From an uncultured Hormoscilla sp. (lineage in GTDB: Bacteria > Cyanobacteriota > Cyanobacteriia > Cyanobacteriales > Desertifilaceae), in contig OZ001293.3 of assembly GCA_963921275.4 (NCBI GenBank), forward strand, positions 6,400,001 to 6,464,000: a stretch of 64,000 nucleotides of DNA. The letters are read 5' to 3'. A program made the position numbers and the translations under genes. Below, piece by piece: positions 6,143 to 12,405 of the stretch (within the stretch, counting starts at the first letter, position 1; each line of letters starts with the position of its first letter). The notes under the pieces are model-generated. The model was given only the letters and a program-made list of their open reading frames with translations. It was not told the DNA's origin and ran no database searches.

Positions 6143-6774
6143 ATAATCATCTCTCTAAATTGGCATCTTGTGTGAGAAGCCAGGGCACCAGCGATCGTAA
6201 CGGACTTCTTTAGTTTATCTATATCATCGGTCGTCAGTTATCAGCACCATCCTTCGTCCAGAGGCAATCATGTAGAATCAACAAAAATACTTATTTGCCA
6301 AGGAGCAGCCCCTCCCTAGCTATCCGTCACCAGTTTCTCCATAATTATACCACAATCCCCACAGTTCGATCGTGCTTGGCTGCTTCAGTGAAATTATTGA
6401 TTTCCTCAGGTTTTGACTATATTTGTCTCAGAAATCGGGGATAAAAGACAATTGATAACAATTGGGATTGGCATGTATACTTTGAAAGGTTCAGACGAGT
6501 CAGTATTTAACAAGTTAAGCTATTGGCATGGTATATGTGCGATTCGTTTAGCGTAAACTAACTTGACACAAGTCAAGGAGGGGGACCGCTACCGGGATTT
6601 CGTAAGTCCCGAGAACTTACAGGTGATGGTGGTGAAAGCCCGCCCCTCCAGGTGCAGGAGTGACAGCACCCTCCCCACGGTAGCGATGGCATCAATCCGT
6701 GAAGCGGGAAGGAAAGGCGCTATGGCTGGGAGCCTAGACCGGTCATCGTCGAGCAAGTAACTATGATGAGCGTA

Positions 6775-7609
6775 GTGCGATTCGTTCTAGTCTAACGTGG
6801 GCAACTACGGAACGCTAGGCCAGGTCCAAACTGGTAACTCTGGTATTCATGGGGGTTAGATTCCCTCTCTCCAAGTGTGGGAGTAACACCGGTCCTTAGT
6901 GCTGCTGAGTCACATCACGGTGGTGCGGAGCAAGGACTTAAATGTAGGATAGCTAGCAGCCTAAGCTAGTGACGCCGCTAGGAAAGATGCTAATGGCTAG
7001 AACAAGCGAACCTGTGTACGCCTCGTTATCTAGAACCAGCGAAATAAGGCTTAAAGCGCTGGCCCAAAAGGGAAATGGTAGTTTGTGCTGGTTCTTGCAC
7101 TTGGCCAGTATCGCACTCTAAGAACTCCCGGGGTATAGCAGGGGCCTAAAAGCATCGTGAAATGATACTAGGGAACGAAGTAACTTCTCGTGTGCTGTCT
7201 AGATTGGACAAGTTAGATGTAAAGCGCAAGCCGCGAGGGGAGAGATAGCCCGAGAAGCTAATGCCTAGGGTAACGCCTATGGATATGATGGGGTGTTCCT
7301 CATCCAGCTGACGCGGGTTGGTTAAAGTAGGAAATCTTGGGTAAGAGTATCTCTAAGACGCCGGAGGCCTCTCGAAGGTTGGATGACTGGTAAAACAGAC
7401 TTGGAAATGGTAATACTAAAGGTTATCTGGCAGCGCCGCTTACCAACCAGGAAAGGAGTGAAATCGCATGAGATGAGGGACAAGTGGAGCAATCCGTAGT
7501 AATCCTAGTAGTGACAATGCCCTACTTGCCAGTAGCCGGATGCGGTGAAAGTCGCACGTCCGGTTCCGAATGGGAGAGTTAGGGGGTGACCCCTAGCTCG
7601 ACCCCGACT
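6775..7609 (+). mobile_element. ORF-less group II intron A2 nested (sense) in domain I of intron C
   Basis: 835 nt, almost identical to 5275-6109; intron C sequence resumes on both sides. Confidence 0.93.
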
Positions 7610-7742
7610 AAGCGAAGGTTTGCAACGTCGTAAAGCCTATCCAGTGTAATAAGGCTGATACACTGGCCCAAAAAGGGAAAGGATACTGGTCATTGGCGGA
7701 TGTATACCCGACCAATAAGCACTGACAATAAACCCGGCGTAG

Positions 7743-8613: not shown

Positions 8614-10255
8614 AGAACCCGTCTAAGGTTACGACCAATCATCTGTAGGAACGAAGTAACCCGGTTGTAGCACTCTCCATCACCGGTCGATAGATGGAGT
8701 AGCCACCACAGGCGTAACATCTGCTCTCCGGAAGGCAGGACGCAACTGGGGGAGATTGAGTGGAGAAGTAAATGCCTGTCTGTAATGGATAGGATAAGCT
8801 GACGCCCTCACGGTCTCGTCAATTGTGAAGTTGTAAGTAGTAGTGAATATGTCACGGAACTTAGTCGAAAGACAAGAGTATGAATGGAAGACTGTCGCCT
8901 GGCGAAAGCTGGAAAGGATAGTTTTTAAGCTGCAAAAGCGAATTTACAGAGCGGCACTGGAAGGTAATAAGCAGAAGGTTCGTAAGCTCCAAGGATTACT
9001 AAATAGGTCATGGTCCGCGAAGATGATAGCGGTACGGCAGGTAACACAACAAAACCAGGGAAAGAAGACGGCTGGTGTGGATGGTGTGAAAGCACTGACC
9101 CCAAAAGAACGTATCGAACTGGTAGGTCAAATCAAAGTTACTCGAAAGGCGAAGGCAAAAGCCACACGAAGAGTGTGGATACCGAAGCCACGAAGGGAGG
9201 AGAAGCGGCCATTAGGAATACCAACGATGCACGACCGCGCACTTCAGGGATTGGTTAAAGAAGCGCTAGAGCCTGAATGGGAAGCGTATATGGAAGCCAA
9301 TTCCTACGGGTTTAGACCAGGTAGGGGATGTCATGATGCAGTTGCAGCGATATTCGCTAGCATCAGTCAAAAATCGAAATGGGTGTTAGATGCGGATATT
9401 GCGAAGTGTTTCGACGAAATTGACCATTCCGCGCTCCTAAAGAAATTGAATACTACGTCACCAATCCGTAAACAAATACGGGCATGGCTAAAAGCTGGGG
9501 TGATGGACCGGGGAAGGATGGAATCCACAGAAGCCGGAACTCCCCAAGGTGGGGTTATATCTCCATTACTAGCCAATATAGCTTTACATGGGCTGGAAGG
9601 GGTAGTAATGGGTCTCGCTCACACAAAAAGAGAGAAGGAGAAGTTAACCGTAGTAAGATATGCGGATGACTTTGTGGTAATACATAATGACCGGTCGATG
9701 ATTGAGGAAGCTCAAGGAGTGATTGAGGAGTGGTTGAAGGGAATAGGGCTGGAGCAAAAAGCCGAGAAAACGAAGATATCCCACACATTGGAAGGAGAGA
9801 GCCCTGGATTTGACTTCTTAGGGTTCAATATCCGACAATATAAAGTAGGGAAACACAGAAGCGGCAAACTCTGTAACGGAACCCCCCTAGGATTCAAGAC
9901 CCTAATCAAGCCTAGCGATAAATCCATAAGGAATCATAAAGAGCAGCTATCAGAGATAGTTCGCCGCCATAAAGGGGCACCGCAAACGGCCTTAATAGCA
10001 AGACTAAACCCGATGATAAGGGGATGGAGCAACTATTATAGGACGGTGGTAAGTAAAGAAACTTACAGCTCTATGGATAACTACTTATGGAAGTTGTTAT
10101 GGCGATGGGCAAAGAGAAGACATCCTAACAAAACGGGCAAATGGATTGCTAGTAAGTACTGGGGTATGACCGGGAAAGACCGGTGGAGGTTCGCTGGCAA
10201 GTCTAAAGAAGATGGAGGAATGAAGCTAAACCGATACTCTGAAACTGAAATAATC

Positions 10256-11996
10256 GGATGGGGTCGAGCTGGGAATCGCTTCCCGACCCTCCCTTGAGGA
10301 ACCGGACTTGCGATTTTCACCGCATCCGGCTACTGAGTACTAGGCCCTTTTCATAGGTGGATGGGGTCGAGCCGGGAATCGCTTCCCGACCCTCCCTTGA
10401 GGAACCGGACTTGCGATTTTCACCGCATCCGGCTACTGGGTACTAGGCCCTTTTCATAGGTAGACTTAATAGGAATTACTTCCGTTAGCCCTTGCCGCCT
10501 GTCTTTTCTTCCCTTTCCTGGTTTAGCGAGTGGTTGTTCTGATAACCGTTAGTATCACCATTTTCAAGTCAGTTTTACCAGTTATCCATACCTTATCCTC
10601 CACTTGCGTTTCGGATTAGTTCCGTGGCTTTTTAGGATTACTCATTCCAGCAGCTTCCTAGTATCACCGACCCACGTCAGCGCTGGCTACCCAGCATCAT
10701 CTACATTACTGTAGATGTTATCCCAGGAATTACCCCGGGCATTCGCTTCTTGGGCCATCCCTCCCCCCGTGGCTTGCGCTTAACATCTAACTTGTCCTGA
10801 TGGACAGCACACGAGAGGTTACTTCGTTCCCTAACAACATTTCGCGATACCTTTAGGTCCACACTATACCCCGGGAGCTATTTGAGTACTATATTAGCCA
10901 GAGTCTAAAACTAATACTAGCTACCATTTCCTTTTTAGGCCAGCGCATATAGCCTTATTTCGCTGGTTCCTTATAACGAGGCTTGCACATGTTTGCCTGC
11001 TCTAACCTTGGATATCTTTCCTAGCGGCGTCACCGGCTTAGGCTGCCAGTTATCCTACATTTGAGTCCTCGCTTAGCACCACGATGATGTCGCTTCGTAG
11101 CACCGAGGACCGGTGTCACCCCCGTACCTGGGGGGAGGGGAATTTAACCCCCATGCGGTCAGAGTTCCCGGCTAATGAAACCGGGCTAGCGTTCCGTGTT
11201 TGACCACGTTAGGCTAGAACGAATCGCACAGACTTAATAGGAATTACTTCCGTTAGCCCTTGCCGCCTGTCTTTTCTTCCCTTTCCTGGTTTAGCGAGTG
11301 GTTGTTCTGATAACCGTTAGTATCACCATTTTCAAGTCAGTTTTACCAGTTATCCATACCTTATCCTCCACTTGCGTTTCGGATTAGTTCCGTGGCTTTT
11401 TAGGATTACTCATTCCAGCAGCTTCCTAGTATCACCGACCCACGTCAGCGCTGGCTACCCAGCATCATCTACATTACTGTAGATGTTATCCCAGGAATTA
11501 CCCCGGGCATTCGCTTCTTGGGCCATCCCTCCCCCCGTGGCTTGCGCTTAACATCTAACTTGTCCTGATGGACAGCACACGAGAGGTTACTTCGTTCCCT
11601 AACAACATTTCGCGATACCTTTAGGTCCACACTATACCCCGGGAGCTATTTGAGTACTATATTAGCCAGAGTCTAAAACTAATACTAGCTACCATTTCCT
11701 TTTTAGGCCAGCGCATATAGCCTTATTTCGCTGGTTCCTTATAACGAGGCTTGCACATGTTTGCCTGCTCTAACCTTGGATATCTTTCCTAGCGGCGTCA
11801 CTGGCTTAGGCTGCCAGTTATCCTACATTTGAGTCCTCGCTTAGCACCACGATGATGTCGCTTCGTAGCACCGAGGACCGGTGTCACCCCCGTACCTGGG
11901 GGAGGGGAATTTAACCCCCATGCGGTCAGAGTTCCCGGCTAATGAAACCGGGCTAGCGTTCCGCGTTTGACCACGTTAGGCTAGAACGAATCGCAC
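10256..11996 (-). mobile_element. ORF-less intron B2 (outer), antisense in the RT ORF, containing B3
   Basis: 10256-10358 plus 11230-11996 reconstitute an 870-nt B copy with a few substitutions. Confidence 0.92.
10359..11229 (-). mobile_element. ORF-less intron B3 (871 nt) inserted in B2 in the same orientation
   Basis: Complete B copy inserted at ATTAAGTCT|ACCTATGA of B2. Confidence 0.93.
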
Positions 11997-12405
11997 AGAC
12001 ACGTAAAGGTTAAGGGGACAGCTAGCCCGTTTGACGGTAATCTGGTTTATTGGAGCAAAAGACTGAGAAAAAGCCCGGATGTGAGCGCTAGAGTTATCAG
12101 ACTGCTAAAAGAGCAGGATGGTAAGTGTGTGCACTGCGGACTGAAATTCAAAGATGGCGACAAATGGGAGGTTGACCATATTCTACCAGTTTCTAAAGGA
12201 GGTAAAGACTGGTATACCAACCTACAGTTGCTGCATGATTATTGCCATGATGTAAAGTCTGCCAGAGATGGTGACAAAGGCCGTATCCATGACAAGGATG
12301 GCGAAACTGAGGAGCCGGATGAGGTGAAAGTCTCACGTCCGGTTCTGAAGACGAGTCGGCGGGGTGACCCGTTGGCTTAGTTTAATCCATTACACCAAAC
12401 AATCC

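Follow-up and report, generated by a model that had tools for sequence, protein, structure and literature searches.

Repeated insertion of two protein-less group II introns into a reverse transcriptase-encoding intron of an uncultured Hormoscilla sp.

In a 64,000-nucleotide window of the chromosome of an uncultured Hormoscilla sp. (positions 6,400,001 to 6,464,000 of contig OZ001293.3, assembly GCA_963921275.4), we analysed a nest of five group II introns, the outermost of which, termed C, encodes a reverse transcriptase (RT). Hormoscilla lives in sponges. Our analysis indicates that C is probably a mobile group IIB intron which received four precise and separate insertions of two abundant protein-less introns, termed A and B. 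These introns likely move by borrowing RT proteins of the C type, and their insertion likely left this copy of C unable to splice or move.

Architecture of the nest and recurrent invasion of C

All five introns start with GTGCG and scored above the gathering threshold of the Rfam model RF00029, the domain V-VI matches of which end at 7608 (+), 7745 (-), 10258 (-), 10361 (-) and 12386 (+). The A copy within C (A2) is in sense orientation and the three B copies (B1, B2 and B3) are antisense to C; the latter differ pairwise by 1-5 substituted positions and one 1-nt gap, and A and B are ∼73-76% identical. B2 measures 870 nt once B3 is removed, B3 being the third nesting level (Table 1). In silico removal of A2, B1, B2 and B3 restored a 2403-nt intron, GTGCG...AGTTTAAT, the open frame of which comprises 598 codons when counted from GTG 8843, or 596 from ATG 8849. 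Since the excised C is 99.8-99.96% identical to the eight other C copies in the chromosome, the junctions of the inner inserts are exact. The original prediction of five nested introns at these positions, and of an open RT-X-En frame across the junction of ...SETEII and RHVKVKG, was thus borne out, the En part being an HNH domain. It had also placed both B1 and B2 within the RT open reading frame (ORF), which is correct for B2 but not for B1, located in domain I ∼230 nt upstream of the start codon. Although each inner intron is precisely inserted in another, as in a twintron, the only sense pairs are A2 in C and B3 in B2. As was also foreseen, B1, B2 and B3 cannot be spliced from the RNA of C, to which they are antisense, and we therefore regard the whole as a nest at the DNA level rather than a spliceable twintron.

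The intron-encoded protein (IEP) of C possesses RT0-7, X, D and HNH and shows chloroplast-like affinity. Pfam detected RVT_N, RVT_1 and GIIM to the left of B2 and HNH to its right. The nearest solved IEP, and by a wide margin the best match in the PDB, is the RT of Thermosynechococcus elongatus (6ME0_C; E 1.8e-95), in which the cut made by B2 corresponds to about residue 455/456 of 562. After this cut, the truncated protein continues with 13 residues read from antisense B2 before reaching a stop codon, for a length of 482 aa. The nearest relatives of the RT were found in Hormoscilla genomes, with up to 79% identity. The targets of the C family carry G-6, T-5, T-3 and A-2 in 9/9 cases. As for the pairing of exon-binding site (EBS) 3 with intron-binding site (IBS) 3 in C-type introns, a G at EBS3 goes with +1 C in 7/9 cases, and in family 6 an A goes with +1 T in 8/8. 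The predicted EBS3 of C is the G at 7614, and A2 is inserted a few nucleotides before it.

A search of the genome for uninterrupted C copies, as suggested in the original prediction, returned none: all nine copies (9/9) were invaded, only one retained a full-length ORF (intact IEP at C1:2408120-2409907), and eight lacked the HNH end of the protein. The C at C1:4451120, which holds A and antisense B, is itself located within an intact frame of 206 codons. Sense A was present after position 238 of C (C238) in 7/9 copies and antisense B at C2013 in 8/9, while B at C371, that is B1, was found in this copy only. The self-site at position 768 of B (B768) was filled in 5 of the 144 near-identical B copies, twice inside C, and a nest of B in B in C, composed of different haplotypes, exists at a second locus as well. 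To assess lineages, we counted inserts across C plus related host introns, with A lineages of our own definition. The 11 A inserts at C238-type sites belong to all four lineages (3 ref, 3 803G, 3 468A and 2 del77; 25, 29, 13 and 5 of the 72 near-identical A copies in the pool), and the 12 B inserts at C2013-type sites comprise 10 main, 1 GA830 and 1 G61A (116, 21 and 7 of 144 in the pool). The nine C copies displayed seven different combinations of A and B lineages. As the mixed lineages of both introns occur in about pool proportions, these data point to mostly independent events at C238 and C2013, presumably retrohoming into hot spots, and a single origin of a C+A+B composite was rejected as the whole story.

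Insertions of this kind were also seen elsewhere. At G000:C1:4756093-4762604 and 6630135-6636006 of the same chromosome there are nests of one RT intron in another, and the inner one has again been hit by A in sense and by B in antisense orientation, just as in C. In the draft assembly of a congener (G004), three of the five B-like copies fetched are interrupted in their EBS1 hairpin by one and the same antisense intron; composites of this make-up, 1.8 kb long, are identical at L011:3261-5059, L012:3346-5145 and L013:3571-5369 of this genome but have different flanks.

Table 1. Features of the nest and its surroundings (positions in the window)
Feature	Position	Strand	Remarks
Free A copy A1	5275..6109	+	Neighbour of C; direct repeat of A2 across the promoter
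Sigma70-like promoter	6452..6481	+	TTGATA-18-TATACT; 10/12 match; ahead of OmpA-family gene
IBS1 of C, GTATAT	6531..6536	+	5' exon; pairs with EBS1 GUAUAC
Intron C	6537..12386	+	Outer RT-encoding group IIB intron, chloroplast-like IEP; 2403 nt net
Intron A2	6775..7609	+	ORF-less, sense, 835 nt, GTGCG...GACT; at C238/239
EBS1 of A2, UGCACU	7096..7101	+	Matches A target consensus AGTGCA (63 unique flanks)
EBS1 of C, GUAUAC	7702..7707	+	Family comparison, predicted fold
Intron B1	7743..8613	-	ORF-less, antisense, 871 nt, GTGCG...ATCC; at C371/372, domain I 3' strand
EBS1 of B, AGACUC	8285..8290	-	Matches B target consensus GAGTCT
Truncated IEP	8843..10297	+	RT0-7 and X preserved; last IEP residue 469, counted from ATG 8849
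Intron B2	10256..11996	-	ORF-less, antisense; at C2013/2014, between X and D/HNH; contains B3
Intron B3	10359..11229	-	ORF-less, within B2 in B2's orientation, 871 nt; at B position 768/769, domain IV
Orphaned D/HNH part of IEP	11997..12377	+	C-terminal, 126 aa; Pfam HNH E 8.7e-14; 6ME0_C 456-561
Domains V-VI of C	12310..12386	+	Rfam RF00029, 57.6 bits
OmpA-family gene	12406..13212	+	Intact, in 3' exon of C; probable GTG start 12406; Pfam OmpA E 3.3e-19

Target recognition by A and B and its consequences for C

Alignment of 63 unique A flanks and 122 unique B flanks revealed a retrohoming footprint consisting of IBS1, IBS2, A+1 and A-15, with C-18 in addition for B. Complementarity of EBS1 and EBS2 to the flanking IBS1 and IBS2 was found for A, B and C, although the match is poor at the site occupied by B1. 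The ends originally assigned to A and B proved tenable, as the last base covaries with the gamma nucleotide in J2/3: the gamma-gamma' pair involves AGA with a terminal T in A and GGA with a terminal C in B, and such covariation was apparent in most of the 10 ORF-less families displayed. This covariation, together with the exact restoration of C and B, ruled out that A and B end at a canonical AY followed by a conserved +1 base. Instead of AY, their ends read GACT and ATCC, with a likely branch A at -9; other cyanobacteria likewise have RT introns with an A at -9 (L075, L083 and L087). The +1 base of A and B targets is mostly A. The aligned EBS3 position holds G or A, and the U that precedes EBS1 fits the +1 A better than this position does. 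For the intron EcI5, the excerpts of the published work describe C-18, A-15 and A-14 as critical positions (PMC8643678). C2013 has all three as well as G-6, and B768 is without C-18, A-14 and G-6.

A and B thus combine a retrohoming footprint with the lack of an RT of their own, as befits the passengers of a driver/passenger system, and for want of this RT they would need a protein in trans. Among the cyanobacterial RT introns that were compared, the C-type introns of the genus gave better alignments to their domain I than the others did, and we infer that C-type proteins are the main candidates for moving them. The antisense inserts are explained by the fact that RT-assisted homing into DNA ignores the strand. 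Replication-strand bias of A and B, considered as a sign of mobility without the endonuclease (En), was not detected (permutation p = 0.2), the GC skew being too weak to define replichores.

The sequence shows that C reached its site, likely in the leader of an OmpA-family gene, once the lineage had separated from three congeners, in which the site is empty. A and B insert by EBS/IBS-guided retrohoming into DNA, as their footprints show, with a target on the bottom strand of C yielding an antisense insert. According to the haplotypes, C238 (A, sense) and C2013 (B, antisense) are recurrent targets filled mostly independently in each copy, and B768 is a weaker self-target of B that gave rise to the third nesting level. 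B2 cuts the protein after RT-X and removes D/HNH, and the cut protein may keep its maturase and RT activities but lose endonuclease-primed homing. B1, a one-off insertion into domain I that is not removable from C RNA, would stop C from folding and splicing, and within one transcript the antisense B RNA could form a duplex with sense A2. That the sites are so often occupied most likely reflects target quality, given how frequent insertions are in this genome, and as a side effect the pool of mobility-competent RT would be drained.

The original prediction that the ORF-less introns inactivate C was sustained in part. It is favoured by the recurrent invasion and by B1 in domain I, whereas B2 alone need not inactivate C and is no proof of its death, because its position in the ORF loop does no damage to RT and X and there is a precedent in RmInt1, the protein of which retrohomes and splices without D and En according to the excerpts of that study (PMC1802570). 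Since B1 interrupts the 3' strand of domain I and is not removable from C RNA, C likely cannot fold, and B1 likely blocks the splicing of C at this locus. A2 could leave the RNA in a prior splicing step, as the inner intron of Trichodesmium does. The predicted A2:B1 duplex amounts to -1057 kcal/mol versus -543 for the separate folds and ∼-410 for two base-shuffled controls, although A2 is transcribed before B1.

Several observations weigh against this interpretation. In an additive target matrix, C2013 scored 12.0 and B768 11.8, with the B1 target at 2.0, the 4th percentile of occupied sites. The occupancies of C2013 and B768 were nevertheless 8/9 versus 5/144 (Fisher p = 2e-9), and as their scores are alike, target quality as modelled does not fully explain the filling. 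The mean ages were alike too, at 0.47-0.59 private substitutions per kb and 0.51 for C, and the idea that B768 is rarely filled because B is younger was dropped. Site quality does account for a part: C2013 keeps all the G-C pairs, and sites with the G-C pairs of B and A-15 were filled in 2/6 and 6/21 cases, compared to 5/69 for those without G-6. There is still an excess; relative to 6/21, the probability of finding at least 8 of 9 sites filled is 3e-4, with the copies not being fully independent. C238 is an imperfect EBS match with a background occupancy of ∼1%. In addition, the commonest lineage accounts for 10 of the 12 B inserts, which leaves room for some copying of C+B composites or gene conversion. 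Lastly, the secondary-structure placement of A2 and B1 derives from an RNAalifold consensus and family comparison, and splicing, expression and trans-mobilisation were deduced from sequence features. On balance we favour a hot spot, with selection kept as the main rival.

Genome-wide intron load, alternative explanations and the locus

In the chromosome, a hidden Markov model search yielded 492 domain V-VI matches, and a stack parse of intron ends gave 430 paired group II introns, representing 7.0% of the chromosome; 153 unpaired ends, 103 of them 5' (many probably chance matches) and 50 of them 3', are excluded from this number. As many as 363 of the 430 have the A/B type of end, and none of these (0/363) contains RT sequence; a cognate RT-bearing parent of A and B was not found among the 430. 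The 57 RT introns are all C-type, and at least 12 of them, from several families, have a full frame. There are 65 nested introns (40 sense and 25 antisense), ten of which lie at depth 3, and with four inserts the present nest has the most among the 50 host introns. The 5' motif was counted 465 times in this genome; counts ranged from 3 to 147 in four congeners and did not exceed 11 in 26 other relatives, several of these genomes being fragmented drafts. In the excerpts of a published survey, the maximum is 101 introns per genome, with 281 ORF-less introns in 1,790 representative genomes (PMC8919778), and the ∼4-fold ratio to our count is not a like-for-like comparison as the two pipelines differ.

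Within ORFs of at least 250 aa, introns were sense in 56 cases and antisense in 28 (p = 0.003). Genes interrupted by an ORF-less intron in sense orientation are eno, zwf, prfC, recJ, the class II ribonucleotide reductase gene, ribD, queG and hpsA, for which a scan covering 40 of the 56 sense-interrupted long ORFs found no second copy at 40% identity or more; ribD and queG are interrupted near their 3' ends. This suggests that splicing is real and that maturase is in demand. The only zwf gene is interrupted within the window by a family 3 ORF-less intron in sense orientation (46752-47684, -), and gltB, elsewhere in the chromosome, also carries an ORF-less intron. The class II ribonucleotide reductase gene (G000:C1:849548-852694; L122) harbours both an ORF-less intron and an intein with a LAGLIDADG domain. 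Further B copies in the window are an antisense one near the start of a 1140-codon ORF (23952-24822, +) and a rearranged one, in which a near-full copy overlaps a partial second copy (60376-61611, -); two more antisense B insertions each lie at codon 78 of other long ORFs. Genome-wide, 103 of the 129 distinct substitutions in A and B are C>T/G>A, and there are 11 tandem CC>TT/GG>AA changes. In 71 of the 103 cases the change follows a pyrimidine (52% background), a spectrum resembling that of ultraviolet light.

These data bear on the possibility, which we consider unlikely, that the invasion of C is a host-selected brake that shades into domestication. Selection, and not only target quality, would then drive the 8/9 filling of C2013, such that cutting the endonuclease off C results in fewer new insertions while RT-X is retained as a needed splicing factor. 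The excess occupancy over matched neutral sites, the position of the cut between X and D/HNH, the sense introns in the eight single-copy housekeeping genes and the excess of sense introns in long ORFs would all fit such a scenario. However, a similar site in family 12 (84% identical; score 10.2) is filled in 0/4 cases, at least 12 RT introns keep their full ORFs, and in one of the truncated C copies X itself contains a nonsense change. Moreover, the substitutions are too few for a selection test, and antisense insertions at one site amount to one evolutionary target. A broader and equally doubtful version holds that this genome is part-way to an organelle- or eukaryote-like intron economy, in which ∼360 protein-less introns depend on shared RT-maturases. 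The backwards insertion of B, the most abundant passenger, at the X/D boundary would make the driver a splicing-only RT-X protein, host selection would keep the insertions for ending mobility at no cost to splicing, and the nest would be the end point of this feedback at one locus. This idea gains its footing from the housekeeping-gene introns, as they suggest a demand for splicing and maturases.

Somewhat less likely still, antisense B may have been gained once in the ORF loop of C, after which the loaded intron was spread by an intact RT acting in trans, or the inserts may have been copied among C copies by gene conversion. Domain IVb of group II introns tolerates cargo, which would allow such composite mobility. 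The predominance of the main lineage among the B inserts (10/12), three C copies with the same A and B lineages, and a C 3' fragment that abuts a partial B, suggestive of recombination among copies, are in line with it. On the other hand, at least three B and four A lineages occupy the sites, in several host families that are 72-100% alike, the single-nucleotide polymorphism C891T is common to two C copies with different inserts, and an unspliced C+A is unlikely to be mobile with A adjoining EBS3.

An assembly artefact, in which shuffled near-identical repeats would mean that the five pieces do not share one molecule, is very improbable: although B2 departs from the B consensus at five positions, one of them in a homopolymer, which places it among the most divergent of the 144 copies, and none of the contigs listed bridges the inner junctions by a 31-letter rule, every junction is base-precise at the intron ends, the congeners have an empty site, the sequencing depth fits the copy number, the second locus with B in B in C has other haplotypes, and the window lies on a single 6.88-Mb contig that constitutes the chromosome. 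Specifically, the short-read contigs of run X2 had a depth of ∼36-38x in unique flanks and ∼320-410x in pieces of C. This ratio fits about nine C copies and thus settles the original concern about repeat collapse. The listed contigs span only 26-29 letters over the junctions, leaving the locus unphased, and the short-read runs may derive from the source sample of the assembly. At 99% likeness, no contig among those listed bridges the B2/B3 junction, with such contigs dropping rare variants, and the contigs of run X5 covered no unique flank. One further contig of the assembly, G000:C3, is 31 kb long with 17.6% GC, unlike the remaining assembly, and is probably foreign.

The flank joined across 6536/12387 is continuous in all three congener loci that reach the site (L098-L100), with a fourth, L101, ending short of it; the A1 site is empty in L099 and L100. 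C likely lies downstream of a promoter-like site, in the leader of the OmpA-family gene. Sigma70-like sites at the 10/12-match level are not above chance in this region, and the -10 region of this one is identical in three congener loci. Because C separates the promoter-like site from the gene, transcripts of the latter would begin with 5.85 kb of unspliced leader, or else the gene would be silenced; it is 92-97% identical at the DNA level in four congeners. Recombination between the direct repeats A1 and A2 (5275-6109 and 6775-7609) could delete the promoter of the OmpA-family gene, and recombination among B1, B2 and B3 (7743-8613 and 10256-11996) could delete the RT part of C. Directly after the gene (∼13214-13366) there are short tandem repeats of the GTTAGTT and CAACTGACCACCTA types.

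Significance and relation to known intron systems

A long-standing question is how self-sufficient retroelement introns gave way to protein-less introns with common splicing factors. Published surveys describe ORF-less bacterial introns as rare, and here a single chromosome holds 363 introns of an RT-less lineage among 430 paired ones. The nest alone is a striking but expected product of this intron load, and the genome-wide system carries more weight. It offers replicate natural experiments, with the same target in nine driver copies filled in sense or antisense, and the nest names testable parts: an IEP that is still intact, an RT-X truncation that recurs, a pair of passengers and a defined set of target sites. 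Driver/passenger systems, twintrons, introns that target RTs and nests of five introns have all been described before, and it is the context that stands out. In the open-access literature, with most subscription papers outside the scope of the search, we found no case in which ORF-less introns in antisense orientation truncate an RT intron time and again at such a scale, and the open-access literature yielded no paper on Hormoscilla introns.

The suggestion that the nest is deeper than any known did not survive comparison with Methanosarcina acetivorans, where up to five introns are nested according to the excerpts of two studies (PMC4424553, PMC2504315); "deepest nest known" was discarded accordingly, the 10 deepest introns of the present chromosome reaching depth 3. 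Like those archaeal nests, the present one arose by repeated homing into other introns. In the same excerpts, M.a.I5, UA.I3 and P.l.I2 target the RT ORFs of related introns; these RT-targeting introns carry their own RT and strike the catalytic motif, whereas our nest was invaded by introns without an ORF, and RT and X escaped the cut. Three of the four inserts in our nest are antisense, the archaeal orientation being unstated in the passages.

The twintron of T.e.I7 and T.e.I8 in Trichodesmium erythraeum resembles the pair of A2 and C, in that a sense inner intron in the 5' part must splice first, and its host genome likewise has ORF-less introns in genes (PMC4649490). As described in the excerpts of that study, however, the Trichodesmium twintron has two levels, both with IEPs, was shown to splice in vivo and contains no antisense insert. 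Like RmInt1 (PMC1802570, in excerpt), the C protein left by B2 is an RT-maturase without D and En, and such a protein can act in trans on ORF-deleted ribozymes. RmInt1 is naturally devoid of En and displays a replication-strand bias, while here En was lost by insertion and no bias of A and B was detected.

The closest parallel is provided by T. elongatus, in which, according to the excerpts of the published study, the ORF-less TeI3 (F3) resides inside the RT-encoding TeI4 (F1) and the IEP TeI4c serves as 'driver' (PMC2882425), a precedent for trans-mobilised ORF-less introns that enter their helper independently. The two systems have in common that their introns are cyanobacterial and of subgroup IIB, probably so in the case of A and B, that EBS and IBS match well in the ORF-less copies, and that one site of an RT intron received repeated independent insertions. 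They differ in scale, with 28 introns in T. elongatus, 17 of them ORF-less, compared to 430 paired introns and 363 of an RT-less lineage here. Furthermore, the inner intron of T. elongatus is spliceable and the IEP can still be made, whereas in Hormoscilla the second recurrent insert is antisense and removes D/HNH, and nesting extends to depth 3.

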